Of a stretch of 64,000 nt of DNA, positions 3,021 through 60,887 are shown piece by piece. A model generated the notes under the pieces. That model saw only the letters and a program-made list of their open reading frames with translations, ran no database searches and had not been told where the DNA came from. Origin of the DNA: Alphaproteobacteria bacterium (GTDB lineage Bacteria > Pseudomonadota > Alphaproteobacteria > Rhodospirillales > Rhodospirillaceae). A program made the position numbers and the translations under genes. The DNA is taken from contig JAMOBE010000001.1 of the NCBI GenBank assembly GCA_039908285.1, forward strand, positions 21,155 to 85,154, given 5' to 3'. Positions within the stretch are counted from its first letter, which is position 1; every line of letters begins with the position of its first letter.

Positions 3021-3171
3021 GGGGTCCTATTCGTGATGGGCCGGCGGCCGCGTGGCGTCAATGCACCGTCGGGAATGATATCGCAGTCCGTGGGAACGCG
3101 CATCGCAATTCAGGCCGCCGGAGCGTGATACCGCCAACGCGCCGGCCGCAGGATCAGTGTGCGGGCTCTGA

Positions 3172-3376
3172 GGAAGAAACAGATAACACGGATGAACACG
3201 GATGTGAACGGATGAACACGGATGAGAGAGGAGTTGACAAATGGGCCGCTCCAGCAGTGTTTGTCTTATATTCATATAATAATACACAGTATATAAGCCC
3301 ATGCCCCGGTAAACTCCGTTCTAATCCGTGTTCATCCGTTAACATCCGTGTTTATCCGTGTTATCTGTTTCTTTCT
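3172..3376. repeat. CACGGAT decamer-array inverted-repeat element, complete copy 1 (MITE-like)
   Basis: The left arm (3173-3228) holds four tandem 10-bp units: AACACGGATG AACACGGATG TGAACGGATG AACACGGATG. The right arm (3320-3375) is its inverted copy. The arms flank a ~90-bp AT-rich core. Homologous to 8974-9229 and 22073-22168. Confidence 0.75.
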
Positions 3377-3409
3377 TGACGCAAGCACGGTGATGCCAGT
3401 CACACGGTC

Positions 3410-4759: not shown

Positions 4760-4954
4760 GACCACCTCTCCTTGCTTTTCTCATCCTACAGGATCATGTG
4801 AGACGTGAACACAGGAATGGCTGTCCCTTGAATCTGGTGAACGGGTGACTGACAACATATTTTCTCTCCCTCTTCAAGCCACCGCATGCACACACGCTGG
4901 ACAGACGGGGCCGTAGGGAGTTCGCTGTAGAAACTATCCGTTTCCCGCAAAATA

Positions 4955-7371: not shown

Positions 7372-7378
7372 GCCCACG

Positions 7379-8917
7379 ATGATCCGCTCCATCCGCAACA
7401 TCGTCCGCCTGGTTCACATCGTGCGCGTGCTGGCGCGCCACGATGCCCTGTTCCCCATCGAGCGCGTCACCGCCGTGCGCGACCTCGCCTATCTGGCCAA
7501 GCTGGTGACCCGCCGCGGCCCGCCCGGGCGCCCCGGCCAGCGGCTGGCCCGCGCCATGGTGGAGCTGGGGCCGGCCTTCATCAAGCTCGGGCAGACCCTG
7601 TCCACCCGCCCCGATGTCATGGGCGAGGACGTGGCGGCCGATCTCACCTCGCTCCAGGACAAGCTGGAACCTTTCCCCGCCGACGAGGCGCGGCGCATCA
7701 TCGAGAGCGACTTCGAACGGCCGCTCGAGGAGCTGTACTCCGAGTTCTCGGCCGAGCCGGTGGCGGCCGCCTCCATCGCCCAGGTCCACTTCGCGACCAC
7801 CACCGACGGGCGGCAGGTGGCGGTCAAGGTCCTGCGCCCCGACGTGGCGAAGAAGTTCGAGCAGGACATCGACGCCCTCTACTGGCTAGCCGAGATCGTC
7901 GAGCGCACCCAGCCCGGCTTCCGCCGCCTGAAGCCGATCGAGGCGGTGCGCACCTTCGAGGACACGGTGGCGATGGAGATGGACCTCCGCTTCGAGGCCG
8001 CCGCCGCCGCCGAGCTTCACGACAACTTCGCCGGTGACGACACCTTCCGCGTGCCCATGGTCGACTGGCAGCGCACGTCGCAGCGGGTCCTGACCACCCA
8101 GCGGGTGGTGGGCATCCCGGTGGATGAGCGCGAGCGCATCATCGCCGCCGGCATCGACCCCCGCGCCATCGTCGAGAAGGCCGCCAACGGCTTCTTCAAC
8201 ATGGTGTTCCGCGACGGCTTCTTTCACGGCGACCTGCACCCGGGCAACATGTTCGTCGGCGAGAACGGCGAGGTCATCCTGGTGGACTTCGGCATCACCG
8301 GCCGGGTCGACCGCGCGACGCGGCGCTATCTGGGCGAGATGCTGCTCGGCTTTCTCACCGCCGACTACCGGCGGGTGGCCGAGGTTCATTTCGAAGCCGG
8401 ATACGTTCCCGCCGACCGCTCGGTGGATACCTTCACCCAGGCCTGCCGCTCGGTGGCCGAGCCCATCTTCGGCAAGCCGATGAACGAGATCTCCATCGGC
8501 CGCCTGCTCGGGCACCTGTTCAAGGTCACCGAGACCTTCGGCATGGAAGCCCAGCCCCAGCTTCTCCTGTTGCAGAAGACCATGATCACCGCCGAGGGCG
8601 TCGGCCGCCTCCTCAGCCCCGACGTCAACATGTGGACCCTGGCCCGCCCCCTCATCGAGGGGTGGATGCGCGAGACTCTGGGACCCGAGGCCAGGCTGCG
8701 CCAGATGGCCACCGACCTCACCTCGTCGTTCGAGCGCCTGCCGCGCCTTTTGGAACACACCGAGCGCACCGCCGCCATGTTCCGCTCCGGCGGCCTGAAG
8801 CTGCACCCCGAGACCGTCGCCGAGCTGACCGGCCGGCGCGGTCGGCGCTCCTTCTTCACCACCCTGCTGCCGTGGGTTCTGGTGGCGATTCTGGCCAGCA
8901 TGCTGCTGGCCCGGTGA
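7379..8917 (+). CDS. ubiB: Ubiquinone biosynthesis regulatory kinase-like protein UbiB (ABC1 family)
   Basis: Contains FIKLGQTLSTRPDV, PVAAASIAQVHFA, VAVKVLRP and HGDLHPGNMFV, with C-terminal TM helices. Directly follows ubiE. Start taken at ATG 7379 (MIRSIRNIVRL). Confidence 0.92.
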   Translation: MIRSIRNIVRLVHIVRVLARHDALFPIERVTAVRDLAYLAKLVTRRGPPGRPGQRLARAMVELGPAFIKLGQTLSTRPDVMGEDVAADLTSLQDKLEPFPADEARRIIESDFERPLEELYSEFSAEPVAAASIAQVHFATTTDGRQVAVKVLRPDVAKKFEQDIDALYWLAEIVERTQPGFRRLKPIEAVRTFEDTVAMEMDLRFEAAAAAELHDNFAGDDTFRVPMVDWQRTSQRVLTTQRVVGIPVDERERIIAAGIDPRAIVEKAANGFFNMVFRDGFFHGDLHPGNMFVGENGEVILVDFGITGRVDRATRRYLGEMLLGFLTADYRRVAEVHFEAGYVPADRSVDTFTQACRSVAEPIFGKPMNEISIGRLLGHLFKVTETFGMEAQPQLLLLQKTMITAEGVGRLLSPDVNMWTLARPLIEGWMRETLGPEARLRQMATDLTSSFERLPRLLEHTERTAAMFRSGGLKLHPETVAELTGRRGRRSFFTTLLPWVLVAILASMLLAR

Positions 8918-8973
8918 GGGAATGGTTCGGTGAGAGATTGGAAGTGTTTCGACACACGGGGTAATACCGCTCG

Positions 8974-9229
8974 CCAGCGTGCTGGCGTAGAGAAAAAAGA
9001 TGCAACACGGATGAACACGGATATCCACGGATAAACACGGATACAGAACACCAGAATGCTACTCTGTCTTTACCCGTGACAATATGTTAAGAATAATATT
9101 ATATTATTACAGCAAGATATTTTCACGTGCCCCACTTAAGCCTATGTCAAACTCTGCTGCATCCGTGTTTATCCGTGGATATCCGTGTTCATCCGTGTTG
9201 CGCCTTTTTTCTTAAAGCCAGCACACTGG
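8974..9229. repeat. CACGGAT decamer-array inverted-repeat element, complete copy 2
   Basis: Left arm: ...AGAAAAAAGATGCAACACGGATGAACACGGATATCCACGGATAAACACGGATAC. The right arm (9158-9229) is a near-perfect inverted copy, including the outer CCAGYGTGCTGG. The AT-rich core is ~110 bp. It sits between the convergent ubiB and Sel1-repeat genes. Confidence 0.8.
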
Positions 9230-9296
9230 AGATCGATCCATTTCATTGGTGCTGTGTGTCAAACTTTAGGTTCGCCGGTGAAACCTTTTCACCCTC

Positions 9297-9911
9297 TCAC
9301 CTCTGGCCGCTCAGCATCATCCTGACGGACTGTTCGATGCCTGGCGCCGTGTCCTTTGGCATCATGGGGGCGAGGCGCTGGCGGGTGGTGGTGGCGTCGG
9401 TACGGACGGAGTCGTCCTTGGCGAAGTGTTCGGCGAGCATCAGCCAGTAATAGGCGTTGGCGGCGTCGTAGGGGCGCATCATCTTGCGGACAGGGTCATA
9501 GCCCCGGTCGAGGTACATCTTGCCCAGGCTGAGCTGGGCCCTGGCGTGGCGCTGGCGGGCGGCGGCGGTGAACCAGTCCTCGGCGCGGCGGGGATCCCGG
9601 CCGATGCCCTTGCCCTCGGCGTAGAGCTGGGCGAGCTTGTACTGGCTTTCCGGCTGGCCGCGACGGGCCGCCTGGAAGTACCAGTCGCGGGCGGCGAAGC
9701 CGTCCTTCGCCACCCCCCCCAGTCCATCGGCGTGGATGTCGCCGAGGCGCTCGCAGGCATCCGGGTCGCCCCTGTGGCCTTCGGGAGTCAGCTCGCGGAC
9801 GGCGGTCGCGCCGTCTCCACGCTCAAGCGCCTTCAACGCCTCCGCGGTGCCGGCCAGCGCCGACCCGATGAGGAGGAGATGGATACACCCCGCCAGAACC
9901 CACCGTTTCAT
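9297..9911 (-). CDS. Secreted Sel1-like (SLR/TPR) repeat protein
   Basis: Signal peptide MKRWVLAGCIHLLLIGSALAG. Repeated Sel1 signature: LGDIHADGLGGVAKDGFAARDWYFQAARRGQPESQYKLAQLYAEGKGIGRDPRRAEDWF. Confidence 0.8.
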   Translation of the reverse strand: MKRWVLAGCIHLLLIGSALAGTAEALKALERGDGATAVRELTPEGHRGDPDACERLGDIHADGLGGVAKDGFAARDWYFQAARRGQPESQYKLAQLYAEGKGIGRDPRRAEDWFTAAARQRHARAQLSLGKMYLDRGYDPVRKMMRPYDAANAYYWLMLAEHFAKDDSVRTDATTTRQRLAPMMPKDTAPGIEQSVRMMLSGQR

Positions 9912-36119: not shown

Positions 36120-37421
36120 ATGACCGACATCGACACATCGCTGATCATCGACCTTGTCGCCATCCTTGCCCTGCTGGTGATGTCATTCTTCTTTTCGGGG
36201 TCGGAAACGGCGCTGACCGCCCACTCGCGGCCGCTGATGCACCAGCTCGAGCAGCAGGGCAACCGCCGCGCCGCCCTGGTCAACAAACTCACCGGCAACC
36301 GCGAGCAGTTGATCGGCGCCATCCTTCTCGGCAATACCCTGGCCAACATCCTGTCATCGGCGCTCGCCACCAAGGTGATGATCTCGCTGTTCGGCGAGGC
36401 TGGCGTCGCCTATGCCACCCTGGCGATGACCCTGGTGATCCTGATCTTCGCCGAGATTCTGCCGAAGACCGTCGCCCTCCGTCATGCCCCCCGGGTGGCC
36501 CTGGTGCTGGCGCCCCTGGTCACCGTCGTGGTCTGGGTGCTGGCGCCGGCGGTGAAGGTGATGCACGTCGTCGTGCGCCTGACCCTGCGCCTCGCCGGAG
36601 CCGACGGCGCCAGCGAGCACGACGTCTCCACCACCGTGGCCGAACTGCGGGGCGCCATCGAGCTGCACGGCCGCGACGACGGCGAGGTCCGGCACGAGCG
36701 CGCCATGCTGCGCAGCGTGCTGGAACTGGGCGAGGTGCGGGTCGGCGAAATCATGACCCACCGCCGCAACGTCGTGACCATCGACGGCGACCAGAAGGCC
36801 GGCGCCATCCTCGACGCCGTGCTCTCCAGCGCCTATACGCGCATCCCGCTGTGGCGCGGCAAGCCCGACAACATCATCGGCGTCATCCATGCCAAGGACC
36901 TGCTGCGGGCCGTGCGGGCCCATGTCGGCGACCTGGACGAACTGGACGTGGTGACCGTGGCCACGCCGCCGTGGTTCATCCCCGAGTCCACCTCGCTGCA
37001 CGAACAGCTCCAGGCCTTCCGCGATCGCCGCGAGCACTTCGCCATGGTGGTGGACGAATACGGCACCCTCCTTGGCATCGTCACGCTGGAAGACATCCTG
37101 GAGGAAATCGTCGGCGACATCACCGACGAGCACGACGTGGCGGTGTCGGGGGTGCGCCCCCAGGCCGACGGTTCGTACATGGTGAACGGCGACGTCACCC
37201 TCCGCGACCTCAACCGCGAGTTCGACTGGCGCCTGCCCGACGAGGAGGCGGTGACCATCGCCGGCCTGATGCTGCACGAGGCGCGCCACATTCCCGAGGT
37301 GGGCCAGGTCTACCTCTTTCACGGCTTCCGCTTCGAAATCGTCCGCCGCGTCCGCAACCAGATCACCGCCGTGCGAATCACCCCCCAGACCACCGATCGG
37401 GGAACCGAGACCGGCACGTGA
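36120..37421 (+). CDS. HlyC/CorC (CNNM) family transporter: DUF21 membrane domain, CBS pair, CorC_HlyC domain
   Basis: FFFSGSETALTA (DUF21 start) and four TM helices. A CBS-pair region (VGEIMTHRRNVVTI...IPLWRGKPDNIIGVIHAKDLL). C-terminal EYGTLLGIVTLEDILEEIVGDI and FRFEIV. Confidence 0.88.
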   Translation: MTDIDTSLIIDLVAILALLVMSFFFSGSETALTAHSRPLMHQLEQQGNRRAALVNKLTGNREQLIGAILLGNTLANILSSALATKVMISLFGEAGVAYATLAMTLVILIFAEILPKTVALRHAPRVALVLAPLVTVVVWVLAPAVKVMHVVVRLTLRLAGADGASEHDVSTTVAELRGAIELHGRDDGEVRHERAMLRSVLELGEVRVGEIMTHRRNVVTIDGDQKAGAILDAVLSSAYTRIPLWRGKPDNIIGVIHAKDLLRAVRAHVGDLDELDVVTVATPPWFIPESTSLHEQLQAFRDRREHFAMVVDEYGTLLGIVTLEDILEEIVGDITDEHDVAVSGVRPQADGSYMVNGDVTLRDLNREFDWRLPDEEAVTIAGLMLHEARHIPEVGQVYLFHGFRFEIVRRVRNQITAVRITPQTTDRGTETGT

Positions 37422-37462
37422 GTGGCGGGAAGCGCTCTCCCGTTGGAGGAAGAGAAACCCGC

Positions 37463-37558
37463 CAGGGCAATCGGGTGAACCGATCAAAAGCCCTCTCCCC
37501 CCGGAAGAGGGGGGAGAGGGAGTGAAGATGGCGGCTCTCACTTCACCCGATTGCCCTG
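37463..37558. repeat. Minimal REP/MITE unit: 17-bp TIRs (CAGGGCAATCGGGTGAA) around a single hairpin
   Basis: TIRs at 37463-37479 and 37542-37558. The core is CCCTCTCCCCCCGGAAGAGGGGGGAGAGGG. Confidence 0.85.
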
Positions 37559-37615
37559 AGAAACCCGCGAGCAGTGGTTCCCATGGGGCGTCGTTTGCTG
37601 TAGTCTGCCGCCCAC

Positions 37616-37692
<77 letters not shown>

Positions 37693-37853
37693 CGGGGGGT
37701 AGTGGGCGGAAATGGGCAAAGCGACACTTGGTTTTGGAGAGCGACGGGCGGAAAAAGGCCTCCCCGACGTCGGCCTCGGACGTAGGAACCCTGGGGAGGA
37801 AAGAATCCCCGCCACCTGCGCCCTCCCCGTCGGGGAAGTAAGAAAGAAAGTGT

Positions 37854-37876
37854 TGTGAGGGCCTGAGGCCCTCACA
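37854..37876 (-). terminator. Rho-independent terminator of the two-gene islet next to tRNA-Arg
   Basis: A 10-bp perfect stem (TGTGAGGGCC-TGA-GGCCCTCACA). On the minus strand it is followed by ACACTTTCTTTCTTACTT. It lies 65 nt after the stop at 37942. Confidence 0.55.
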
Positions 37877-37941
37877 CTCCCCATTCCTTCCAGGATTGGT
37901 GGTTCTGGGGAATGCGGCAGGACCGCAGAACTCAAGGTATA

Positions 37942-38220
37942 TTATTTATCAAAAGCTTCCTGATTAGTCCGCACTTTACCGGACTGTTGTTTGCTTAGGC
38001 TCGTTTCATGTTCATCTGAAGAACTGAACAATTTTATGCCAACTCTAGAGAAATATTCTATGACCTCCTTGACCGTGGCTGAGGCAGCTCCATTACCAAT
38101 CGCGGTAGCAATCAGCACAACAAACGCCGAACCACCGATGGCAGCCCCAAGTTTCTCTTTAATTGTAGAAGCTCTCCCCGCAGATTCCCTCACTTTCATC
38201 TTCCGGCTATAATTGCGCAT
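37942..38220 (-). CDS. Small hypothetical membrane protein (islet gene 2)
   Basis: AT-rich ORF with one TM segment (LGAAIGGSAFVVLIATAIGNGAAS). The track start (38304) is a TTG, so ATG 38220 (MRNYSRKMKV) is taken instead. The start is uncertain. Confidence 0.4.
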   Translation of the reverse strand: MRNYSRKMKVRESAGRASTIKEKLGAAIGGSAFVVLIATAIGNGAASATVKEVIEYFSRVGIKLFSSSDEHETSLSKQQSGKVRTNQEAFDK

Positions 38221-38305
38221 GCTATGAAACCCACTGCAAATGAGGGGACTTACGAGGAGGAATCCTGCAGCGTATGCAATGCATCGACAACATCTTCCAC
38301 GCAAC

Positions 38306-38776
38306 TCAGCGCCCTGTACATGACTGCGTCATATTGCTGAAGGTGTAGTTGGCGTAGGCGGGGTTTTTTACTATCCATGCGCTTTCGTAAGCTTTTCGCA
38401 CATTATCTACATTCTTGTCTAGTTCTGGATTTGCTGGGCTCTTTCCACTCAAAGTGTAATACTTACCATTTATCAGATTAATTGGAACCGGATGCCCTAT
38501 CCCACAATTTTTTCCAAAAATTGACTGAAGTTTATCCTTGAGGTCCGGGTATCCAGAATATGGATCTATGTATGCTCCATTCGTACCTTTTTTGAAATAT
38601 TCCGCAATAATCGGCTCTTGAACGGGATCATCGCTCAGAATGATCTTGGCCTTCTCCAGCCCGGGGACCAACGTCGGCCCCTGTGCGGCGGCTGGCAAAA
38701 CCCCGCCGACCGCGGCGACGAACGTAAAGCCCATAGCTGCAGCAATTCGCGTCAATGCCTTCATCGGTGTCTCCAA
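38306..38776 (-). CDS. Secreted hypothetical protein (islet gene 1)
   Basis: 156 aa with signal peptide MKALTRIAAAMGFTFVAAVGGVLPAAAQG. AT-rich with atypical codon usage for this genome. No family recognised. Confidence 0.55.
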   Translation of the reverse strand: METPMKALTRIAAAMGFTFVAAVGGVLPAAAQGPTLVPGLEKAKIILSDDPVQEPIIAEYFKKGTNGAYIDPYSGYPDLKDKLQSIFGKNCGIGHPVPINLINGKYYTLSGKSPANPELDKNVDNVRKAYESAWIVKNPAYANYTFSNMTQSCTGR

Positions 38777-38932
38777 CGTTTGGCGTCCTGGCCTGGTAGA
38801 CGGCTCCCCATAGACTTGACTACCCAGAAGCGTAACAGGGCGTCATCACGCTGACAACTCCAATCTACACTCGTATCACGTGCCCACATCCCCACCATTG
38901 ATTCCGCCGCTCCAGTCGGCGACAGTGGGGGC

Positions 38933-41752
38933 ATGACAACCGACACGACCGACATGACCGACACCCCCCCGTCCGCCATACCGCGCCATGTGTTCCTGGT
39001 GGATGGCTCGGGCTATATCTTCCGGGCGTTTCATGCCCTGCCGCCGATGACGCGGCCGGATGGGACGCCGGTCAATGCAGTTTACGGTTTCGTCACCATG
39101 CTGATGAAGCTTATGGCGAGAGGGGACACCGAGGCAGATCATGTGGCGGTTGTGTTCGACAAGAGCCGGCACACCTTCCGCACCGAGCTCTATCCGGCCT
39201 ACAAGGCCCAGCGCCCCCCTCCGCCCGAGGACCTGGTACCGCAGTTCGGCCTGATCCGGGAGGCGACTCGGGCCTTCAATGTCGCCTGCGTCGAGATGGA
39301 CGGGTACGAGGCCGATGACCTGATCGCCACCTATGCCCGTGAGGCGGTGGCGCTGGGGGCCGAAGTCACCATCGTCTCGGCGGACAAGGACCTGATGCAG
39401 CTCGTGGGTCCGCGCGTCACCATGCTGGACCCGATCAAGAATCGGTCCATCGGCCCGGACGAGGTGCGGGAGAAGTTCGGCGTCGGGCCGGAGCGGGTGG
39501 TGGACGTCCAGGCCCTGGTGGGCGATCCGACCGACAATGTTCCCGGCGTCCCCGGTATCGGCGTCAAGACCGCCGCCGCCCTGATCGAGGAGTTCGGCGA
39601 CCTGGACTCCCTCCTGGCCCGGGCCGCCGAGATCCCCCAGCCGAAGCGGCGCCAGGCCCTGCTGGACAACGTGGACCTGGCCAGGCTGTCGCGCGACCTG
39701 GTGCGGCTCAAGGACGACGTGCCGGTGGAGGTGCCGCTCGAAAGCTTCGCCGTCCGGCCCCGCGACGAGGCCCAGTTGCGCGCGTTCCTGACGGCGCAGG
39801 CGTTCCGCACCATCCTCGCGCGCCTTGGGCCACTCCCGGATGATGTCCCATCGGCGACTCCGGCCCCCGGCGCCGTCCCGTCGGCTCCCTCCTATGACCT
39901 GGTGCGGGACGTCGCCGCCCTGGACCGCTGGATCGCCGAGGCCACGGCCGCCGGCGTGGTGGCGGTGGATACGGAGACCGACTCCCTCGACGCCATCGCC
40001 GCGCGGCTGGTGGGGGTATCGCTGTCGGTCCAGCCGGGCCGGGGCTGCTACATCCCCCTGCGCCATGTTTCCCCCGGCACCGCCCAGGGCAGCCTGGACC
40101 TCGGCGGCGCGGGAACGGGCGGGACGGGCGACTCCGCCCCACCCCAGATTCCGGTGGAGACGGCCCTGGCGCGACTCAAAATCCTTCTCGCCGATCCGGG
40201 GGTGCTGAAGATCGGCCACAACATCAAGTACGACCTTCAGGTGTTCCGCACCGCCGGGCTCGAGGTCACGCCGGTGGACGACACCATGGTGATGTCCTAC
40301 GTGCTCGATGGCGGCAACCATGGCCATGGCATGGACGAACTGGCCGGGAAACACCTTGGCCTCACCACCATCACCTTCAAGGACGTGTGCGGCTCGGGCA
40401 AGGGGCAGATCACCTTCGACAAGGTGCCGCTGGACAAGGCCTGCGCCTATGCCGCCGAGGACGCCGACGTCACCCTGCGGCTGCACGGACTGTTCCGCGA
40501 TCGTCTGTTGGCGGAGCGGATGACCGGCGTGTACGAGACCCTCGACCGGCCGCTGATCCCCGTGCTGGCCGCCATGGAGCGCCACGGCATCCGGGTGGAC
40601 GCGACGGAGTTGCGGCGGCTGTCCGACGACTTCGCCGTCCGCATGGTGGAGCTTGAGACGGCCGTGCACCGGCTGGCCGGCCGCGCCTTCAACATCGCCT
40701 CGCCGAAGCAGCTTGGCGAGGTGCTGTTCGACGAGATGAAGCTCTCCCCCGGCGCCCGCCGGAGCGCCAAGACCGGGGCCTACACCACCGATGCCGCGGT
40801 GCTGGAGGACCTGGCCGCAGCCGGTCACGACCTGCCGGCCCGGGTGCTGGAGTGGCGCCAGCTCGCCAAGCTCAAAAGCACCTACACCGACGCCCTGACG
40901 GCCCGCATCGACCGGCGCACCGGGCGGGTGCATACCTCGTTTTCGCAGACGGTGACCTCCACCGGACGGCTGTCGTCCACCGACCCCAACCTGCAGAACA
41001 TCCCCATCCGCACCGATGACGGCCGCAAGATCCGCCGCGCCTTCATCGCCGAGCCCGGTCATGTGCTGCTGTCGGCCGACTACTCGCAGATCGAGCTGCG
41101 GCTCGTCGCCCACGTGGCCGGCATCAAGGCCCTGATCGAGGCCTTCCACCACGGTGCCGACATCCACGCCATCACCGCGAGCCAGGTGTTCGGCGTGCCG
41201 GTGGAGGGCATGGACCCGGCCCTGCGCCGACGGGCCAAGGCCATCAACTTCGGCATCATCTATGGCATCTCGCCCTTTGGCCTGGCGGCCCAGCTCGGCA
41301 TCGACAAGGGCGAGGCCAAGGCCTACATCGACGCCTACTTCGCCCGTTTCCCGGAAATCCGCGGCTACATGGACCGCACCATCGAGACGGCGCGGAACCA
41401 GGGCTTCGTCACCACCCCCTTCGGCCGCAAGTGCCACACCCCGGGGATCCGCGATCGCAATCCCAACATGCGCGGCTTCGCCGAGCGGGCGGCCATCAAC
41501 GCCCCCATCCAGGGAGGTGCTGCCGACATCATCAAGCGGGCGATGATCCGCCTGCCCGACGCCCTGACCGAGGCCGGCCTCGGCGCCCGCATGCTGCTGC
41601 AGGTCCACGACGAACTGGTGCTGGAGGTGCCCGAGGCCGAGGCGGACGCCACCGCCGCCCTGGTCCGGCGGGTCATGGAGGGTGCCGCCAGCCTCTCGGT
41701 GCCGCTGGTGGTGGACGCCGGCCTCGGCCCAAGCTGGGCCGAGGCCCATTGA
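38933..41752 (+). CDS. polA: DNA polymerase I
   Basis: 939 aa with a 5'-nuclease N-terminus (VFLVDGSGYIFRAFHALPP), a 3'-5' exonuclease region (VAVDTETDSLD) and polymerase motifs (LLSADYSQIELRLVAH; RRRAKAINFGIIYG; LLQVHDELVLE). Confidence 0.97.
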   Translation: MTTDTTDMTDTPPSAIPRHVFLVDGSGYIFRAFHALPPMTRPDGTPVNAVYGFVTMLMKLMARGDTEADHVAVVFDKSRHTFRTELYPAYKAQRPPPPEDLVPQFGLIREATRAFNVACVEMDGYEADDLIATYAREAVALGAEVTIVSADKDLMQLVGPRVTMLDPIKNRSIGPDEVREKFGVGPERVVDVQALVGDPTDNVPGVPGIGVKTAAALIEEFGDLDSLLARAAEIPQPKRRQALLDNVDLARLSRDLVRLKDDVPVEVPLESFAVRPRDEAQLRAFLTAQAFRTILARLGPLPDDVPSATPAPGAVPSAPSYDLVRDVAALDRWIAEATAAGVVAVDTETDSLDAIAARLVGVSLSVQPGRGCYIPLRHVSPGTAQGSLDLGGAGTGGTGDSAPPQIPVETALARLKILLADPGVLKIGHNIKYDLQVFRTAGLEVTPVDDTMVMSYVLDGGNHGHGMDELAGKHLGLTTITFKDVCGSGKGQITFDKVPLDKACAYAAEDADVTLRLHGLFRDRLLAERMTGVYETLDRPLIPVLAAMERHGIRVDATELRRLSDDFAVRMVELETAVHRLAGRAFNIASPKQLGEVLFDEMKLSPGARRSAKTGAYTTDAAVLEDLAAAGHDLPARVLEWRQLAKLKSTYTDALTARIDRRTGRVHTSFSQTVTSTGRLSSTDPNLQNIPIRTDDGRKIRRAFIAEPGHVLLSADYSQIELRLVAHVAGIKALIEAFHHGADIHAITASQVFGVPVEGMDPALRRRAKAINFGIIYGISPFGLAAQLGIDKGEAKAYIDAYFARFPEIRGYMDRTIETARNQGFVTTPFGRKCHTPGIRDRNPNMRGFAERAAINAPIQGGAADIIKRAMIRLPDALTEAGLGARMLLQVHDELVLEVPEAEADATAALVRRVMEGAASLSVPLVVDAGLGPSWAEAH

Positions 41753-52045: not shown

Positions 52046-52708
52046 CTACCGCGGGTAGACGCGGACGGCGATGCGGCGGTTGACCTCCTGGTTCTGCGGC
52101 AGCGGTACGTTGTTGGGGTCGCGGTTGCTGACCTTCGGGGCCACGTCGGCCAGGCCGATGGCCTTGAGGCGTTGCGGCTGGATGCCCGCCTGGATGAACA
52201 TCCTCACCACTCCGGTGGCCCGGGCGGCCGACAGCTCCCAGTTGGAGGGGAACATGGCGGTGGCGATGGGGACATCGTCGGTGTGACCCTGCACCTCGAT
52301 CTGGAAGGCATTGTAGCGGGGCTCGAGGAGGGTCCTGGCCAGGGCCTGGACCACCGGGGCGCCGTCCTGGCGGATGGCGGCCGCGCCGGAATCATAGAGG
52401 AGGGAACTGGCCAGTTCGAAGACCACCCCGTCCTGGTCGGTGCCGACGGCGGCGAAGCCGTCGATCTGCAGGGTCTCCATCAACGCCTTCATGTCGGTCT
52501 TCAGTTGCTCCAGGGGGCGCTCGGTCTTGTTCTTGCTGATTCCCTCCTTCAAGCCGGACTGCACCTGTTCATACTGGTTGGCGTCGATCTTCGATATGGA
52601 AACCAGCATGATGAAAAATGTCAGAAGAAGCGTGACCATATCGGAATAGGTCAGCATCCAGTCTTCCGCTTCTTCGCATTTCGACTTCGTGAAGCGACTG
52701 TCGGCCAT
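52046..52708 (-). CDS. motB: MotB-like stator protein (OmpA-like C-terminal domain)
   Basis: WMLTYSDMVTLLLTFFIML (plug and TM with the conserved Asp), then VQGHTDDVPI...SNWELSAARATGVVRMF (OmpA/MotB peptidoglycan-binding domain). Confidence 0.85.
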   Translation of the reverse strand: MADSRFTKSKCEEAEDWMLTYSDMVTLLLTFFIMLVSISKIDANQYEQVQSGLKEGISKNKTERPLEQLKTDMKALMETLQIDGFAAVGTDQDGVVFELASSLLYDSGAAAIRQDGAPVVQALARTLLEPRYNAFQIEVQGHTDDVPIATAMFPSNWELSAARATGVVRMFIQAGIQPQRLKAIGLADVAPKVSNRDPNNVPLPQNQEVNRRIAVRVYPR

Positions 52709-53511
52709 TATTTATGGCCCTTCATGTGGCTGTCGATGTTGAAGTGGATCGCCGGATCGAGGAAGCTGTTCATCTTGTCCTGGATATAGCGCGGATTTTT
52801 GCGCTCCGCCAGCAGGGCCAGCCCCTCGGCCACCAGATAGTTGCGAAACCGGACGATTTCCTCGCGCTGCTGGATCTTGCTCGCCGTCGGCAGGAAGATG
52901 AGCCGCTGCAGCAGGGCCCCATACAGGGTGGTGATCAGCGCGACGGCCATGCCCGGGCCGATCTTCGACGGGTCGGCGGTCATGGTGTCCAGCATGATGA
53001 CGAGGCCGACCAGGGTGCCGATCATGCCGAAGGCCGGTGCCGTGTTGGCCATGTTCTTCAGGATGTCGGCGCTGATTGTGGCGCGCTGGAACGTCGTCTC
53101 CACCGTGTTGGCCAGGATCTCCCGCACCTCGGCGCCGGTATAGCCGCTGATCACCAGGTCGATGCCAAAGCCGAGGAACCGGTCCTGATTGCGGACCTTG
53201 CCGGCGTCGGCCTCGAGGCCGGGCAGGCCGCTCTTCTGGACGATGTAGCCCCAGCGGATGATCCGACCCACCTCGTTGGTCAGGACACCGCGACCGATCT
53301 TCTGGGCGAAGAAGATCGTCTTCATGACCTTGAGCGCGCCAAGGACATAGCGGGGCTCATAGGAGATGAAGGTCGAAGCCAGCGTGCCGCCGATCACCAT
53401 GACGAAGCTTGGGGCGTCGATGAAGATCCGATAGTTGCTCGTCGCCATGACGATCGAGCCCACGAACAGACCGAATCCGAAGATCACTCCCAGAAGAGTC
53501 GCGAAGGACAT
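52708..53511 (-). CDS. motA: MotA/PomA-like stator proton-channel protein
   Basis: 268 aa with four TM helices. APAFGMIGTLVGLVIML and MAVALITTLYGALLQRLIFLP are the MotA/TolQ/ExbB signature. Overlaps the motB start by 1 nt. Confidence 0.85.
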   Translation of the reverse strand: MSFATLLGVIFGFGLFVGSIVMATSNYRIFIDAPSFVMVIGGTLASTFISYEPRYVLGALKVMKTIFFAQKIGRGVLTNEVGRIIRWGYIVQKSGLPGLEADAGKVRNQDRFLGFGIDLVISGYTGAEVREILANTVETTFQRATISADILKNMANTAPAFGMIGTLVGLVIMLDTMTADPSKIGPGMAVALITTLYGALLQRLIFLPTASKIQQREEIVRFRNYLVAEGLALLAERKNPRYIQDKMNSFLDPAIHFNIDSHMKGHK

Positions 53512-53723
53512 CGTTCGAGCCTCGTTGGCGCAACGGCGCGGACGCACCGGCAGATATCAGCCGGCGACGCACCGGTTTCAGATGTCCGCAGTTTGCGCCA
53601 TTCCTGGCCCAGGAGCAATACTCGCGGGATGGCCGTCCGGGGCAATCGGGACCAAGACCAGCGTTGGCGCGGACCGGCTCCATGGTGTAGTATTTACGGC
53701 GATCGAACGCTTCCGGGGGGACG

Positions 53724-54206
53724 ATGAAGGTTGATTCGCACACATTCCGCAACGCCATGGCCTCGTTCGCCTGCGGCGTTACCGTGGTGACGGCCAGAAC
53801 CACCGACGGGCGACCACTCGGACTGACGGTCAGTTCCTTCGCCTCGGTGTCACTGGAACCGCCGCTGGTCCTGGTGTGTCTCGACCGGAATACGTCCAAC
53901 CTCGACAGCTACTGCGAGGGCCATTTCGCCGTCAACGTCCTGCGGGAGGACCAGAAGGACCTGTCCATCCGCTTCGCCACCCGCAGGGGGGACAAGTGGA
54001 CCGACACCGCCTTCACCACCTGGGACAGCGGCGTCCCCATCCTGAGCGGCTGTCTCGCCACCCTCGAGTGCGGCGTCGAGCACGCCTATGACGGCGGCGA
54101 CCACGTCATCATCGTCGGCCGCGTCCAGCGGCTGACCGCCAGCGCGGCCGGCCAGCCCCTCCTCTACTTCCGCTCCGCCTATGCGGAAATCGGCCGGGCG
54201 GTGTGA
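53724..54206 (+). CDS. Flavin reductase-like FMN-binding protein
   Basis: FRNAMASFACGVTVVTARTTDGRPLGLTVSSFASVSLEPPLVLVCL...GDHVIIVGRV is the flavin reductase domain pattern. Confidence 0.85.
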   Translation: MKVDSHTFRNAMASFACGVTVVTARTTDGRPLGLTVSSFASVSLEPPLVLVCLDRNTSNLDSYCEGHFAVNVLREDQKDLSIRFATRRGDKWTDTAFTTWDSGVPILSGCLATLECGVEHAYDGGDHVIIVGRVQRLTASAAGQPLLYFRSAYAEIGRAV

Positions 54207-54312
54207 AGCCCGCCACCCGACCGGACGGCACGGAATCCTTTGACCGCCCGCCCTGGAATGCGTAATAATATTTCAGAGAGCCCTGTTACGCGTCCAGCCG
54301 GATGATGTCGCA

Positions 54313-55734
54313 ATGAACCAGACCGCGAGTTTCCGCCTTCTCGATCGGTTGAAGGGGTGGCGCCTGTGGAGTCCGGGCGGCCGCGAGTTGACGGTGGGGG
54401 CGGTTCAGCCCGCCCTGCCCGACAGCGATGCCGGCCGGGTCCGCGCCCAGATGCAGGCCTGTCTCGAGTCCCGGGGGGGAGACGTCTCCTCCCGCCAGCG
54501 GGCGGCCATGCTGGGGCGGGCCTACCTGAACCTGAACGCCGACGGGCGGGAGCGCTTCCTGCGCATGCTGGCCGGGGAGTTCGGTGCCGACCAGGCGGCC
54601 GTGGACGCGGCGATCGCCCGCGTGCAGGCCGCCGACGGGCCCGACGGGCGCCTGGCGGCGGAGCAGGCCCTGCGGGCCGCCCTGGAGCCGCCGCGGATCC
54701 GGCTGCTGACCCAGTTCAACGCCCTGCCCGAGGGGGTCAAGTTCCTGGTGGACATGCGGGCCGAGCTGATGCCGCTGGCTCGCCGCGCCCCGGCCCTGGC
54801 GGCGCTCGAGGCCGACCTCAAGGCGCTGCTGGTATCGTGGTTCGACGTCGGCTTCCTCGAACTGAAGCGGGTGACCTGGCATTCTCCGGCGGCGCTCCTG
54901 GAAAAGATCATCGCCTACGAGGCGGTGCACGCCATCCAAAGTTGGGACGACCTCAAGAACCGACTCGACTCGGACCGCCGCCTGTATGCGTTCCTCCACC
55001 CGCGCATGCCCGACGAGCCATTGATCTTCGTCCAGGTGGCGCTGGTCAACGGCATGGCCAACAACGTCCAGGCGGTTCTCGACGAGTCGGCGCCGGTGCA
55101 GGACCACGAGGCCGCCGACACCGCCATTTTCTACTCGATTTCCAACGCCCAGATGGGGCTGGCCGGCATCAGCTTCGGCAACTTCCTGATCAAGCGGGTG
55201 GTGGACAGCCTGTCCCACGAGTTCCCCAACCTGAAGACCTTCGCCACCCTGTCGCCCATCCCCGGGTTCCGCCGCTGGCTCGACCAGCGACTGGCGGAGG
55301 GCGAGCCGGGCCTGCTCAACTCCAGCGAGCACAAGGCCATCACCGCCGTGGCCAAGGGCGGCGCCAAGGGCGGGCTCAAGGCGCTGCTGTCCCGCCCCGA
55401 CTGGCCGTCGGACGAGGCCGCCGTCCAGGCCCTGAAAGGGCCCCTCATGCGCCTCGCCGCCCGCTATCTCGGGGGGGAGAAGCGACCGGCCGAGACGCCG
55501 GGGGGACCGGTGCGAGCCCTCGACCCGGTGGCCCACTTCCACCTGTCCAACGGGGCGCGGATGGAACGGCTGAACTGGCTCGGCGACGTCTCGCCAAAGG
55601 GACTCGGCCAGTCGGCCGGCCTGATGATCAACTATCTCTACAAGCTGAGCGAAATCGACCGCAACCACGAAAGCTACAGCGCCCAGGGAAAAATCGCCAT
55701 GTCCTCGTCGATCCGGGGACTTGTTCGGGGGTGA
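54313..55734 (+). CDS. Malonyl-CoA decarboxylase
   Basis: LKALLVSWFDVGFLELKRVTWHSPAALLEKIIAYEAVHAIQSWDDLKNRL...FYSISNAQMGLAGISFGNFLIKRVV...TLSPIPGFRRWL...HFHLSNGARMERLNW matches the MCD family closely. Confidence 0.9.
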   Translation: MNQTASFRLLDRLKGWRLWSPGGRELTVGAVQPALPDSDAGRVRAQMQACLESRGGDVSSRQRAAMLGRAYLNLNADGRERFLRMLAGEFGADQAAVDAAIARVQAADGPDGRLAAEQALRAALEPPRIRLLTQFNALPEGVKFLVDMRAELMPLARRAPALAALEADLKALLVSWFDVGFLELKRVTWHSPAALLEKIIAYEAVHAIQSWDDLKNRLDSDRRLYAFLHPRMPDEPLIFVQVALVNGMANNVQAVLDESAPVQDHEAADTAIFYSISNAQMGLAGISFGNFLIKRVVDSLSHEFPNLKTFATLSPIPGFRRWLDQRLAEGEPGLLNSSEHKAITAVAKGGAKGGLKALLSRPDWPSDEAAVQALKGPLMRLAARYLGGEKRPAETPGGPVRALDPVAHFHLSNGARMERLNWLGDVSPKGLGQSAGLMINYLYKLSEIDRNHESYSAQGKIAMSSSIRGLVRG

Positions 55735-55760
55735 GGGGCAGCTCGCGTCGTTGCATTTTT

Positions 55761-55789
55761 TTGACCGACGAAACTCGTCCCGATATGAT
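55761..55789 (+). promoter_or_regulatory. Sigma70-like promoter of the PIN cassette
   Basis: TTGACC (55761-55766), a 17-nt spacer, then TATGAT (55784-55789), 33 nt upstream of ATG 55822 and preceded by a T-rich stretch. Confidence 0.4.
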
Positions 55790-55821
55790 GGGGAGGACGT
55801 GCGAAGGGGCGAAGGCGGGCC

Positions 55822-56640
55822 ATGGCCGACGACGACGACCAGATCACCCTGAAGATACACGGACTCGAAGTCGACAACGATTTCGTGCTGGCGGACGTGT
55901 TCGCAAAAAAGCTGGGGGCCCTCGTCAATGCGCTCAAACGTGTGGACCGCCTGGAGCACGACAACAAGATTCGCCACCGATATATCATTGCCGATCTGAG
56001 ATTCGGCAGTGCATGCGCCACCGTTCGAGAAAAGGCGGTCAGTCTACGCAACCCGCCGAAAGCATCGAGCGTAAAGGGTCTGCTGAGTCTCGTATCCTCC
56101 ATCCATGATGGAGACACCTCCAGGGCTGCCACGTATCCAAAGCCGCTGCTTAATGACATCCGAATTATCACCTACGGCAGCGAGAAAATGTTCTCGCATG
56201 CGGAAATTCATTTCTGGCAAGGACGTGCATTCCGTATAGATAAGTTTCTTGAAGAGCGTGTCCGCGAAGTAACAGAAGTTGCGAATGATGACAATATACT
56301 GGCGTCACCAGGTTACTTCCTTGGCACTGCCTACGGGACGTTCGATGGCATGCTAGTCGTGCTGGACGCACGGGGCACGGTCTTGCGGGGCAAGCTGATC
56401 CTGGACGTCGGGAGGATCGAACTCGACTGCGTAATGAGCATGGACGAGATTCCGAATGTTAGGGAGTATTTCAAGAAGCACGTTTCTGTCGAGGCTGTCG
56501 CCCATTATGACGGTCATCAGCAGCTCCCCATACGTCTGGAGATCCGCAATGTAAGAGAGTTGGCCGAGGCGGCTGACCTGACGAGGTGGCGCGGGGCGAT
56601 TGAGCCGCGGGCGCATGATGACTTTGACGACGAGTGGTGA
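55822..56640 (+). CDS. Hypothetical 272-aa protein, upstream partner of the PIN nuclease
   Basis: MADDDDQITLKIHGLEVDNDFVLADVFAKKLGALVNALKRVDRLEHD...AIEPRAHDDFDDEW. Coding-like and AT-richer than its flanks. No family, TM helix, signal peptide or DNA-binding motif recognised. Confidence 0.65.
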   Translation: MADDDDQITLKIHGLEVDNDFVLADVFAKKLGALVNALKRVDRLEHDNKIRHRYIIADLRFGSACATVREKAVSLRNPPKASSVKGLLSLVSSIHDGDTSRAATYPKPLLNDIRIITYGSEKMFSHAEIHFWQGRAFRIDKFLEERVREVTEVANDDNILASPGYFLGTAYGTFDGMLVVLDARGTVLRGKLILDVGRIELDCVMSMDEIPNVREYFKKHVSVEAVAHYDGHQQLPIRLEIRNVRELAEAADLTRWRGAIEPRAHDDFDDEW

Positions 56641-56645
56641 GTCCC

Positions 56646-57215
56646 ATGCCTGAAGTAACCAACGTCTTCTGGGACTCGTGCGTGTTTTATGCGTATTTCA
56701 GCAACAATACCGACGCCTACGACGTCGATGGCATTGAGCAGTACGTCAAGGATGCCAGGCAAGGTTCGGTGGTGATCCATACCTGCGCGGTTGCCCTTGC
56801 CGAGGTCGTACCGAGCGCGTTTCGCGGTGGTCCATATGGGGATTTTCCAGCCTTTATGAAGGATATTCGGGGGGGACTCAGGGTTGTCAACCTCGACCCG
56901 AACGTGATGCTGCTGGCCGGGCAGTTGAAGGATCTGCCGTACCAAAAATCGAATGGAAGTCGAAAGCTCGGAACCGGCGATGCCATAATGCTGGCAGCGT
57001 GTATTTCTCTGTCGGAAGCCTACAGTGTCACCGTCGACGCCTTTCACACGTTCGACGACGGAAAGAAGCGTGGCGAGGATGGTGGGAAGGGAGTGCCCTT
57101 GCTGACATATGAGAAATGGTGTGAGGGGTTCGATGTCAGCCAGAAGGCCTTGGCCAGGAAAGTCATCAACCTGAATCGATGTCATCCGCAACACCCTTCG
57201 CCGAGTCTCCTATAG
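56646..57215 (+). CDS. PIN-domain nuclease with C-terminal extension
   Basis: The four acidic PIN positions appear in order: VFWDSCVF, ALAEVV, GTGDAIMLAACI, HTFDDG. The ATG lies 5 nt after the upstream stop. 189 aa. Confidence 0.75.
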   Translation: MPEVTNVFWDSCVFYAYFSNNTDAYDVDGIEQYVKDARQGSVVIHTCAVALAEVVPSAFRGGPYGDFPAFMKDIRGGLRVVNLDPNVMLLAGQLKDLPYQKSNGSRKLGTGDAIMLAACISLSEAYSVTVDAFHTFDDGKKRGEDGGKGVPLLTYEKWCEGFDVSQKALARKVINLNRCHPQHPSPSLL

Positions 57216-57263
57216 AGGCCCGTGCACTCTGGAAGGCGGCAGGGTAATCCGGAACACCCCCCA

Positions 57264-57647
57264 TCAGATCGGCTTGCCGCCAGGCGGATCGGCGGGGCGG
57301 GCTGGCGGAGTGCGGGGATCGGGGGGAGGAGCACCGGGGGGCGCCCCGGGGGGGCCGTCGCCCTTGAAGCCCTCGTAGAAGCGCCGCATCTTGCCCACCT
57401 GATCGTTGAGCCAGGGCTTGGCCGCGTCGTACTGGGACTGGGCTTCGCAGGCGGCGTGGTCGGCGGTGCAGCGGGCGATGCAGCCGACCCGGGCGGCGTC
57501 GCCCTCGGGATGGCGCTGGGTGCAGGCGTCGGCGCACCCGTCGCGGACGGCCCGGCAGCGGTCCGGCGGAGTCTGATCCCCGGCGGCGGCGGCGGCCGGG
57601 GCCGCCAGGGCGAGAAGAACGGCGGCGGCGGAAAGACTTCTCCACAT
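57264..57647 (-). CDS. Secreted Cys-rich / Pro-rich small protein
   Basis: Signal peptide MWRSLSAAAVLLALAAPAAAAAG. Eight Cys in about 60 aa (CRAVRDGCADACTQ...CIARCTADHAAC) and a Pro-rich tail. No family recognised. Confidence 0.6.
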   Translation of the reverse strand: MWRSLSAAAVLLALAAPAAAAAGDQTPPDRCRAVRDGCADACTQRHPEGDAARVGCIARCTADHAACEAQSQYDAAKPWLNDQVGKMRRFYEGFKGDGPPGAPPGAPPPDPRTPPARPADPPGGKPI

Positions 57648-57652
57648 GGCCT

Positions 57653-59476
<1,824 letters not shown>

Positions 59477-59489
59477 GGTCCACCCTCGC

Positions 59490-60887
59490 TCAGCCCTTGT
59501 TGCCGTCCTTGGCTTTGTCCTTGGCTTTGCCGTTGCGGCGGCGGTGGGCGGCGCCCCAGCCGGGCACCTCCCGCTGGGCGCCGCGGGTGACGGCCAGGGC
59601 GTCGGCCGGGACGTCCCGGGTGACCACCGAGCCGGCGCCGACCACCGCTCCGTCACCCACCTTGACCGGCGCCACCAGGGCCGAGTTGGAGCCGATGAAG
59701 GCCCCGGCGCCGATGTCGGTGAAGGCCTTGTTGAAGCCATCGTAGTTGCAGAAGATGGTCCCGGCGCCGATGTTGGCGCCAGCCCCGATCCGGCCGTCGC
59801 CCACGTAGGTCAGGTGGTTGACCTTGGCGCCCTTTTCGACCTTCGCCTTCTTGATCTCGACGAAGTTGCCGATGTGGGCGCCCTCGCCGATCTCGGCGCC
59901 GGGACGCAGGCGGGCGTAGGGACCGAGTTTCACCCCCGCGGCCACCGTGGCGTCCTCCAGGTGACAGAAGCTGTTGATCGTCACCCCGTCGGCCACGGTG
60001 ACGCCGGGGCCGAACACCACGTAGGGATGGATGACCACGTCGCGGCCGATCCGGGTGTCGTGGCTGAAGTGGACCGTCGTCGGGTCGATCAGGGTGACGC
60101 CCGCCTCCATCGCCGCATCACGCAGGCGGTCCTGGGCTACCGCCTCGGCGGCGGCCAGATCCTTGCGGGAGTTGACGCCGAGCAGCTCGTCCTCCTCGCC
60201 CTCGACGAAGGCGCACGGCGCGCCGTCACCCCGCGCCAGGCCGACGATGTCGGTGAGGTAGTACTCCCCCTTGGCGTTGGCGTTGCCGATCCGCCCGACC
60301 AGGTCGAACAGCCGGGCTCCGTCCACCGCCATGACGCCCGAGTTGCAAAGCCCGATGGCCCGCTGCGCCGGCGTCGCGTCGCGATACTCGACGATGGCGT
60401 CGAGGCCACCGTCGGCGCCCACCACCAGCCGCCCGTAGGCTCCGGGATCGCGGGGCCGGAAGCCCAGCACCACCACCGCCGGGGCGCCGTTGCCGCCGGC
60501 CCCCCCGCGCCTCCGGGCCTCCAGCATCCGTTCCAGGGTCGCGCCGGTGATCAGCGGCGTATCGCCATAGAGCACCAGCACATCGCCGGTAAAGCCCGCC
60601 AGCGCCTCGCGGGCCATGGCCACCGCGTGGCCGGTGCCGAGCCGCTCCTGCTGCACCACGCTGGTATGGGGAGCGGCGAGCTGGGTCACCGCCTCCATGC
60701 CGGGACCGACCACCACCACCACCCGGTCGACTCCAAGATGGGCGCCCCCCAGGTGAGCGACGGTATCCAGCAGATGGCGGAGCATGGGACGGCCGGCGAC
60801 GGGATGAAGGACCTTGGGCAGATCCGACTTCATCCGCGTGCCCATTCCGGCGGCGAGAATGACCGCCGCGATGTTGCGCTTTGTCAT
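59490..60887 (-). CDS. glmU: Bifunctional UDP-N-acetylglucosamine pyrophosphorylase / GlcN-1-P acetyltransferase
   Basis: AAVILAAGMGTRMKSDLPKVLHPVAGRPML at the N-terminus, with left-handed beta-helix hexapeptide repeats in the C-terminal half. Confidence 0.96.
   Translation of the reverse strand: MTKRNIAAVILAAGMGTRMKSDLPKVLHPVAGRPMLRHLLDTVAHLGGAHLGVDRVVVVVGPGMEAVTQLAAPHTSVVQQERLGTGHAVAMAREALAGFTGDVLVLYGDTPLITGATLERMLEARRRGGAGGNGAPAVVVLGFRPRDPGAYGRLVVGADGGLDAIVEYRDATPAQRAIGLCNSGVMAVDGARLFDLVGRIGNANAKGEYYLTDIVGLARGDGAPCAFVEGEEDELLGVNSRKDLAAAEAVAQDRLRDAAMEAGVTLIDPTTVHFSHDTRIGRDVVIHPYVVFGPGVTVADGVTINSFCHLEDATVAAGVKLGPYARLRPGAEIGEGAHIGNFVEIKKAKVEKGAKVNHLTYVGDGRIGAGANIGAGTIFCNYDGFNKAFTDIGAGAFIGSNSALVAPVKVGDGAVVGAGSVVTRDVPADALAVTRGAQREVPGWGAAHRRRNGKAKDKAKDGNKG

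Follow-up and report, generated by a model that had tools for sequence, protein, structure and literature searches.

The stretch of DNA analysed here, which we call the window, comprises 64,000 nucleotides (nt) from an alphaproteobacterium of the family Rhodospirillaceae (assembly GCA_039908285.1, contig JAMOBE010000001.1, positions 21,155 to 85,154), and our subject is a cassette of two genes within it, referred to as gene 1 and gene 2. Gene 2 encodes a PIN-domain protein and gene 1 a protein with a predicted OB fold, and we consider it probable that together they make up an atypical, horizontally mobile type II toxin-antitoxin (TA)-like module, in which a PIN toxin would be neutralized by an OB-fold partner. 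The features of the cassette are listed below by position in the window, with protein coordinates in amino acids (aa).

55738-55754, forward strand: terminator-like hairpin and T-run after the stop codon of the upstream gene, from a consensus scan only; the GC content falls from here
55761-55789, forward strand: putative sigma-70-like promoter, TTGACC-17 nt-TATGAT, 10 of 12 consensus matches
55780-55793, no strand: near-palindrome CCGATATGATGGGG over the -10 box; a perfect palindrome, CCGATatgATCGG, in the related locus L007
55822-56640, forward strand: gene 1, 272 aa, MADDDDQ...DDFDDEW, stop codon TGA at 56638-56640
55822-56301, forward strand: N-terminal alpha/beta domain of gene 1, aa 1 to about 160, from a structure model
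56314-56571, forward strand: OB-fold domain of gene 1, aa about 165-250, from a Foldseek comparison
56572-56637, forward strand: DLxxWRGAF motif and disordered acidic tail of gene 1, ending DDFDDEW
56646-57215, forward strand: gene 2, 189 aa, start codon ATG at 56646
57066-57212, forward strand: family-specific C-terminal extension of gene 2, aa about 141-189, about 50 aa

Both genes are genuine, with homologues at E-values down to 1e-98 and 1e-92 and with 332 representatives in the gene 1 family. The TGA of gene 1 lies 5 nt 5' of the ATG of gene 2; a GTG at 56634 is an alternative start for gene 2 that would make the two genes overlap, but homologues, by the alignment of their N-termini, favor the ATG. 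The GC content over 55735-57215 (about 1.48 kb) is 0.555 versus a window mean of 0.666 (z = -2.3), and the GC content of third codon positions (GC3) is 0.65-0.66 in genes 1 and 2 versus 0.85-0.92 in five neighboring genes (those for malonyl-CoA decarboxylase (MCD), a flavin reductase, a 127-aa open reading frame (ORF), glmS and glmU). The GC dip at the cassette is not unique, as two further patches of the window are equally GC-poor. An earlier interpretation made from the letters alone, the sequence-only reading, had described the two ORFs with their coordinates and 5-nt gap, an AT-richer cassette, a promoter-like TTGACC-17-TATGAT site and the genes on either side (that for MCD upstream and a convergent gene downstream), and each of these descriptions was borne out.

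We fetched 33 related loci (given L numbers where they must be told apart), which fall into about 20 independent groups. In all 18 groups with enough contig, gene 2 follows gene 1 directly (spacing, -4 to about +20 nt), and the identities of the two proteins fall together: at the high end 56-60% goes with 69-72%, and at the low end 32% with 37%. Most carriers belong to the Alphaproteobacteria (Rhodospirillaceae, Asticcacaulis, Gluconobacter, Roseomonas and Paracoccaceae), and one Dehalococcoidia genome also carries the pair. Only one of 72,556 plasmids, from Roseomonas marmotae (L033), has it; tblastn gave no match in 50,697 phage records, the viral contigs searched held none, and the metagenome locus scan yielded only five short contigs. 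The distribution of the pair is rare and patchy. That the two genes constitute an obligate two-gene mobile module seems to us almost beyond doubt.

Three promoter-like sites were found in the 2-kb region where shuffles led us to expect 0.5. A -10-like element (GATATGAT, GATATGCT or GATATACT) is kept 5' of gene 1 in the window, in L007/L032, in L001 and in L008, and since GATATGAT is conserved at this place in the closest relatives, the promoter appears to belong to the cassette. We infer that the site at 55761-55789 would drive both genes as an operon, and the near-palindrome at 55780-55793 may be an operator.

We are nearly certain that the gene 2 product has a PIN fold with an intact active site, and we assign it to a divergent subfamily of VapC-like PIN proteins. 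Our reasoning for the fold is that relatives of gene 2 match PF01850 (11 of 19, best E-value 4.1e-8), that the acidic tetrad is conserved and that a confident AlphaFold2 (AF2) model has VapC proteins as its structural neighbors. Within the tetrad, E53, D112 and D137 are present in 52 of 52 family members and D10 in 51, the remaining member having E; T110, before the third acidic residue, is also invariant (52 of 52). The model has a predicted local distance difference test score (pLDDT) of 90 and a predicted template modeling score (pTM) of 0.88, and its top 16 Foldseek matches in the PDB are all PIN or VapC proteins, with template modeling (TM) scores by target of 0.46-0.62 and probabilities up to 0.98, albeit at weak E-values (0.02-0.15). 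The structural neighbors include AF1683, mycobacterial VapCs, the VapC of Shigella/Salmonella, Rickettsia VapC2, the F-plasmid VapC and PIN proteins of Pyrococcus. The Roseomonas orthologue is named a PIN domain-containing protein in RefSeq. A profile search of the gene 2 family against PDB sequences found nothing, and PADLOC models matched neither gene 2 (E-values up to 1) nor its 52 relatives.

The C-terminal extension of gene 2 is conserved in its own right: W158, R178 and P181 are invariant among the 52 members, and C159 and H183 are present in at least 94%. We considered whether gene 2 of the window might be truncated and rejected this, as homologues of about 270 aa merely add a variable low-complexity tail after the core and extension. 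As a separate observation, C12, H134, C159 and H183, each at least 92% conserved in the PIN family, are potential metal ligands; two of them adjoin catalytic residues and two lie in the extension, and it might be that the four bind a structural zinc ion and so hold the extension against the core.

Gene 1 is the founding member of a real but uncurated family. A word-indexed search of 5.8 billion proteins gave 11 clusters of it, and an exhaustive profile search gave the 332 representatives (at 50% identity), nearly all of 260-280 aa. Gene 1 and 89 relatives, when compared with Pfam, PHROGs and PADLOC, matched no family and gave only scattered noise; for gene 1 itself there were zero families in NCBIfam and zero in PADLOC-DB v2.0.0 at E-values up to 1, and the family profile found nothing among PDB sequences. 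Neither gene 1 nor the 89 relatives contain an RHH, AbrB, PHD/YefM or HTH domain according to Pfam, NCBIfam, PADLOC and PHROGs. The AF2 model of gene 1 (pLDDT 81, pTM 0.73) has three parts. The N-terminal domain has no PDB fold match better than an E-value of about 4e-3 by Foldseek, and its conserved polar residues are K30, D42, E70, S82, E128 and D140. That gene 1 might be an enzyme was considered in view of the conserved D42, E70, E128, D140 and D182; no recognizable catalytic motif or fold match accompanies them.

The second part is the OB-fold domain, for which Foldseek matches in the PDB include the anticodon-binding OB domains of LysRS and AspRS, the OB domain of ExoVII XseA, RPA32/14, SSB and Stn1 (E-values 5e-4 to 4e-3, probability 1.00, about 85-105 residues); the gene 1 model has similar OB matches in BFVD. 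It is the best conserved part of gene 1 (G168, G176, D182, R184, C203, Y229 and P236), and yet the curated OB families of Pfam, tRNA_anti (PF01336) and SSB (PF00436), have no sequence match in gene 1 or the 89 relatives. The third part is the tail, in which aa 255-272 have pLDDT below 50. W256 is 92% conserved, a near-terminal Trp is aligned in 87% of members, and the last 16 aa carry a net negative charge in 84% of the 89 members. With its acidity, its disorder and its aromatic last residue, the tail is reminiscent of those of E. coli SSB and T7 gp2.5. Over its full length, the gene 1 model is matched only by uncharacterized phage proteins, namely A0A8S5T657, A0A8S5QA00 (labelled DUF6575) and Q6NE06 of Leptospira phage LE1, at E-values of 1.6e-9 to 2.5e-8 over 259-308 aligned columns with a TM score of about 0.4. 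Pfam DUF6575 had no match in the 89 relatives at E-values up to 0.1.

Relatives of the cassette are carried by IS1595-family insertion sequence (IS) elements, of which three are described here by position in the respective locus.

L033, Roseomonas marmotae plasmid, 7007-9610 (2604 bp): IS1595 transposase, gene 1, gene 2
L016, 7093-9618 (2526 bp): gene 1 and gene 2, followed by a convergent transposase that belongs to a second clade
L018, bounded by inverted repeats (6126-6163 and 8844-8881): transposase, then gene 1 and gene 2

The L033 element has the ends GGGGATTAT...ATAATCCCC and an 8-bp target duplication, TATCTTTA, and in it the stop of the transposase and the start of gene 1 share 4 nt; in NZ_CP061092.1 this element occupies about 190309-192912. 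The L016 element has ends of the same kind and the target duplication TTAAGTTG(A). In L018 the inverted repeats are 38 nt long and 89% complementary, and no target duplication was found at this element. Because target-site duplications bound them, the transposase and the pair in L033 and L016 move together, transposing as one unit. A transposase adjoins the pair in 7 of the roughly 20 locus groups; it stands directly 5' of gene 1 in L010, L018, L022, L023 and L033 (at a spacing of about 2-29 nt in the first four), and in L016 and L026, too, it is linked to the pair. Other settings were also encountered. In Gluconobacter sp. Gdi the pair is part of an integrative and conjugative element (ICE), with the relaxase on one side of it and the TraG coupling protein on the other, in L028 it adjoins a primase-bearing element, and in L013, L014 and L030 it is solitary among housekeeping genes. 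Two IS1595 elements contain a small ORF at the end of the PIN gene, either overlapping it or coming after it (L033, 9363-9548, 62 aa; L019, 8569-8703, 44 aa); there is no room for an equivalent in the window, where only 48 nt precede the convergent gene.

The copy in the window stands alone, inserted between housekeeping genes and lacking a transposase, its transposon frame either lost or never present. No transposase remnant was found anywhere in the 64-kb window and no IS1595 termini of the GGGGATTAT type at the cassette edges. We also considered a 14-nt inverted repeat, 55780-55793 and 57259-57272 (13 of 14 positions), as a pair of transposon ends and rejected it as compatible with chance, a match of this quality being expected about 0.3 times per 2 kb by a rough estimate. 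This repeat has GGGG at its inner end where IS1595 termini have it at the outer end, and its left arm is the near-palindromic -10 region common to relatives.

Two natural disruptions of the pair were found. In the Dehalococcoidia genome (OZ253485.1, L011) the PIN gene is split by an IS1595 element with the duplication AAGAGGAG, and a 10.4-kb segment of this locus is present twice in the chromosome at 100% identity. Toxin-gene decay is common in such modules. In L026 it is gene 1 that is split, between residues 145 and 154, by an IS66 element (ends GTAAGCG..., duplication GCGGAGGA); this is exactly the inter-domain linker, and an ORF for the OB domain plus tail remains directly 5' of an intact PIN gene in two samples. 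These disruptions fit a toxin whose neutralizing determinant would be the C-terminal half of gene 1, a matter of fit and not of proof. Both inserted elements have contents of their own. The one in L011 (10901-14055) has 30-nt inverted repeats and the 8-bp AAGAGGAG, and its passenger is a fused N6/N4 DNA methylase-HNH endonuclease; the one in L026 (2193-5506) also holds an ORF with a match to the DruA (Druantia) family of Pfam, PF14236, which may be defence-related cargo.

A plausible scenario for these observations, and the one that we favor as probable, is that of a TA-like module. Our reasoning for this is that (i) the partner gene comes first; (ii) the cassette has its own promoter; (iii) the two genes are strictly co-inherited; (iv) their composition is foreign and (v) the pair is scattered among genomes and carried on transposons, a plasmid and an ICE. 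Under this scenario the gene 2 product would be a Mg2+-dependent, VapC-like PIN endonuclease acting as a growth-arresting effector, with RNA as its most likely target by analogy with VapC toxins. Gene 1 would be translated first from the common promoter, and its product would bind and restrain the PIN protein, with the C-terminal half (OB domain and tail) as the part that makes contact. The OB fold may add nucleic-acid binding, for operator binding or for sensing. We infer, then, toxicity of gene 2, neutralization by gene 1, the RNA target and a biological role in the service of the carrier mobile DNA, by stabilization or post-segregational selection and possibly by abortive defence. The Rfam scan of 53000-60000 returned zero RNA families, and there is thus no sign of an RNA antitoxin.

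Several of our results weigh against this scenario. The gene 2 protein itself scores 19.2 bits against PF01850 (E-value 0.0019), which is below the Pfam gathering threshold of 23.6, the Foldseek E-values of its model to VapC structures are weak (0.02-0.3), and the NCBIfam VapC model matches only 2 of the 52 family members (E-value 0.002). Gene 1 is without any DNA-binding fold of the known VapB antitoxins, and the conserved D42, E70, E128 and D140 of its N-terminal domain are not obviously needed by a passive antidote. It could also be that the L026 split means that gene 1 is dispensable for surviving the PIN protein.

A second way of reading gene 1, which we think unlikely, is as an active nucleic-acid sensor, in which an OB domain of the tRNA_anti/SSB type and an SSB-like tail would gate the PIN nuclease. 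At rest, the tail or the OB domain would occupy the substrate groove of the PIN protein, which would be released or redirected once a specific single-stranded nucleic acid is bound, candidate triggers being phage, conjugative or transposition intermediates, or tRNA. If this were true, the pair would represent a new class of OB-sensor/PIN-effector module that is standard cargo of IS1595 transposons. A further proposal is that the pair is an anti-phage abortive infection system, in which gene 1 would use its OB fold and acidic tail to sense a nucleic acid of the phage, or a phage protein of the SSB kind, and would thereupon release or activate the PIN protein; it overlaps the TA scenario in mechanism and differs from it in role and trigger, and we treat it as a live alternative of doubtful standing. 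What speaks for it is the size and multi-domain build of the partner, as seen in sensor components, and the company that the pair keeps at certain loci: genes for SIR2_2 (1215 aa), Schlafen/AlbA_2 and DUF4145 proteins lie directly downstream in L032/L007, nSTAND3 occurs with an SMC_N/AAA_23 gene in L001, and L005 has an AAA_15/AAA_21 and HNH pair. The full-length resemblance of the gene 1 model to phage proteins points the same way, one of these being labelled DUF6575, a domain that is reported to occur in an experimentally selected defence system of E. coli (Vassallo et al. 2022, PMC9519451); the DUF6575 system was not identified in the supplements of that paper. On the other hand, nothing beyond noise was matched by PADLOC models in either protein or in the 89 and 52 relatives, DUF6575 has no match in those 89, and the pair is absent from the sequenced phages and viral contigs that were searched. 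The sequence-only reading had suggested either a defence system or an atypical TA pair and proposed PADLOC and defence islands as checks: no defence model was matched, and the notion of an atypical partner was retained. As for islands, 3 of about 14 long contexts are island-like, but most consist of housekeeping genes or IS elements, which makes defence the weaker of the two suggestions.

The association with transposons also allows for a quite different role, namely accessory DNA processing for the mobile element, with an OB protein that binds single-stranded DNA and a PIN/FEN-like nuclease assisting IS1595 transposition or conjugation. Here one can point to the location of the pair within the ends of the transposon, where it runs on from the transposase as in an operon (L033, L010, L018, L022 and L023), to its position between relaxase and coupling protein in the ICE, and to an OB domain closest to the tRNA_anti/ExoVII/RPA/SSB type together with an SSB-like tail. 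We nevertheless consider this role improbable. About 13 of the 20 groups, including the window, have no adjoining transposase or conjugation gene (three of their contigs being too short) and yet keep the genes intact; two transposase clades and two gene orders are typical of exchangeable cargo; unrelated genes, the methylase-HNH gene of L011 among them, are cargo of other IS1595 elements; and the structural neighbors of gene 2 are VapC toxins, not FEN/5'-nuclease PIN-like domains. More improbable by far is a two-subunit housekeeping enzyme of RNA processing, in which the OB subunit would give a PIN RNase its substrate specificity. The resemblance of the OB domain to tRNA anticodon-binding domains, the tight co-translation of the genes and the housekeeping genes on either side of them in the window would all suit such an enzyme, but a foreign GC3, a very rare and patchy family, transposition with IS1595, IS disruption of both genes in natural populations and a break in synteny at the cassette in the closest relative would not, and no vertically inherited, syntenic core pair was seen among the loci examined.

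The surroundings of the cassette complete the picture of the insertion. The upstream neighbor encodes MCD (Pfam PF05292, E-value 4e-107), with its stop codon at 55734, and the hairpin at 55738-55754 marks the left edge of the low-GC cassette. Homology to the closest MCD orthologue locus stops at 55706. An empty site that would give the insertion boundaries was sought at the loci of the closest MCD orthologues, which have 87% and 78% identity, and none was obtained; in these loci synteny breaks at the MCD stop and other genes come next. Downstream lie the convergent 127-aa ORF and then GlmS. The convergent ORF (57264-57647, reverse strand) has zero Pfam matches; it starts with what resembles a signal peptide, contains several Cys residues and is rich in Pro towards its C-terminus. 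The nearest tRNA is at least about 13 kb from the cassette. The second GC-poor patch of the window, at 3050-4765 (GC about 0.53), contains an ORF of 451 aa (3410-4765, reverse strand) with five tandem 'GKSVGESFM' repeats at its N-terminus and a C-terminal part that by eye resembles the catalytic domain of class III nucleotidyl cyclases (VLFIDVTGFS...EGDCVIAIF...GDAVNLAARL); this gene, too, may have been acquired horizontally. The third, at 37400-39300 (about 0.53), starts at tRNA-Arg(cct) (37616-37692) and has two small reverse-strand ORFs just before polA, at 37942-38304 (120 aa) and 38306-38776 (156 aa, its N-terminus resembling a signal peptide); the patch may be a small islet associated with the tRNA gene. 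A brief GC dip (0.54) at 52400-52800 falls at the edge of a MotA/ExbB-like gene (52708-53547, reverse strand).

There is ample precedent for the general logic of a TA-like module of this kind. As in VapBC, an upstream partner is translationally coupled to a downstream PIN gene behind a promoter of their own, gene 2 has the D-E-D-D tetrad and VapC toxins (of Shigella, Mycobacterium, Rickettsia, the F plasmid and archaea) as structural neighbors, and the pair has a patchy, mobile distribution. Unlike VapB, however, gene 1 is 272 aa long, about three times the usual size, and joins an OB fold and an acidic tail to a novel N-terminal domain; and gene 2, for its part, has a conserved extension of about 50 aa, a sub-threshold Pfam score and scarcely any match to the NCBIfam VapC model. 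Membership in classical vapBC fails because gene 1 is not a small antitoxin of the RHH, AbrB, PHD or HTH kind. On these matters the sequence-only reading has held up well. It had judged the pair not to be a textbook vapBC, which agrees with the 272-aa partner, the lack of those four domains in the 89 relatives and the modeled OB fold. The PIN identity that it gave gene 2, from four acidic positions and a C-terminal extension, is upheld by their conservation across 52 members, by the VapC-like structural neighbors and by an active site that is not degenerate. Its proposal of horizontal acquisition is strengthened by GC3 and by relatives in IS1595 transposons with duplications, in a conjugative element and on a plasmid. 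It had also reckoned with the pair not being conserved as neighbors, or with a housekeeping family for the 272-aa protein; the genes are adjacent in all of the testable groups, and no library family was found. The structure search of gene 1 that it had recommended was run with Foldseek and revealed the OB fold, which, like the status of the pair as IS1595 cargo, lay beyond its view.

The closest precedent for the pair is provided by the TA pairs of Tn3-family transposons. TA pairs, including ones with PIN and PIN_3 toxins, are embedded in Tn3-family elements, where the partners of the PIN toxins are RHH_6, Phd or AbrB antitoxins (Lima-Mendez et al. 2020, PMC7157771). In relatives of the cassette, too, a TA-type pair sits inside a transposon beside the transposition genes and moves with it. 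The differences are that the carrier belongs to the IS1595 family of small DDE insertion sequences, that the partner has an OB fold and that the window copy is without a transposon frame. Gene 1 shares the predicted fold of aa about 165-250 with OB proteins such as LysRS/AspRS, XseA, RPA and SSB but differs from them in lacking an OB Pfam match, in its additional 160-aa N-terminal domain and in its obligate pairing with a PIN gene. With the phage proteins, one of them labelled DUF6575, its model has structural similarity over the full length but no detectable sequence similarity in the 89 relatives, and the link to defence through them is indirect. In the literature searched, on OB-fold antitoxins of PIN/VapC toxins and on IS1595 passengers, we did not find a description of the pair, and the curated libraries contain neither of the two gene families. 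The novelty lies in a partner with an OB fold and in the carriage by IS1595 elements; the logic behind the module is a familiar one.

As that logic is known and no long-standing question hinges on the pair, we do not regard the finding as transformative. If the prediction of a TA-like module holds, however, VapC/PIN toxins would have a new partner architecture, in which a novel domain is combined with an OB fold and an acidic tail, and a family of 332 representatives at 50% identity would have been missed by the tools that annotate TA and defence systems. The IS66 insertion in L026, at the domain boundary of gene 1, leads to a hypothesis as to which half of the protein neutralizes the nuclease. 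It would also follow that TA-type transposon cargo extends beyond Tn3 to small elements of the IS1595 family.

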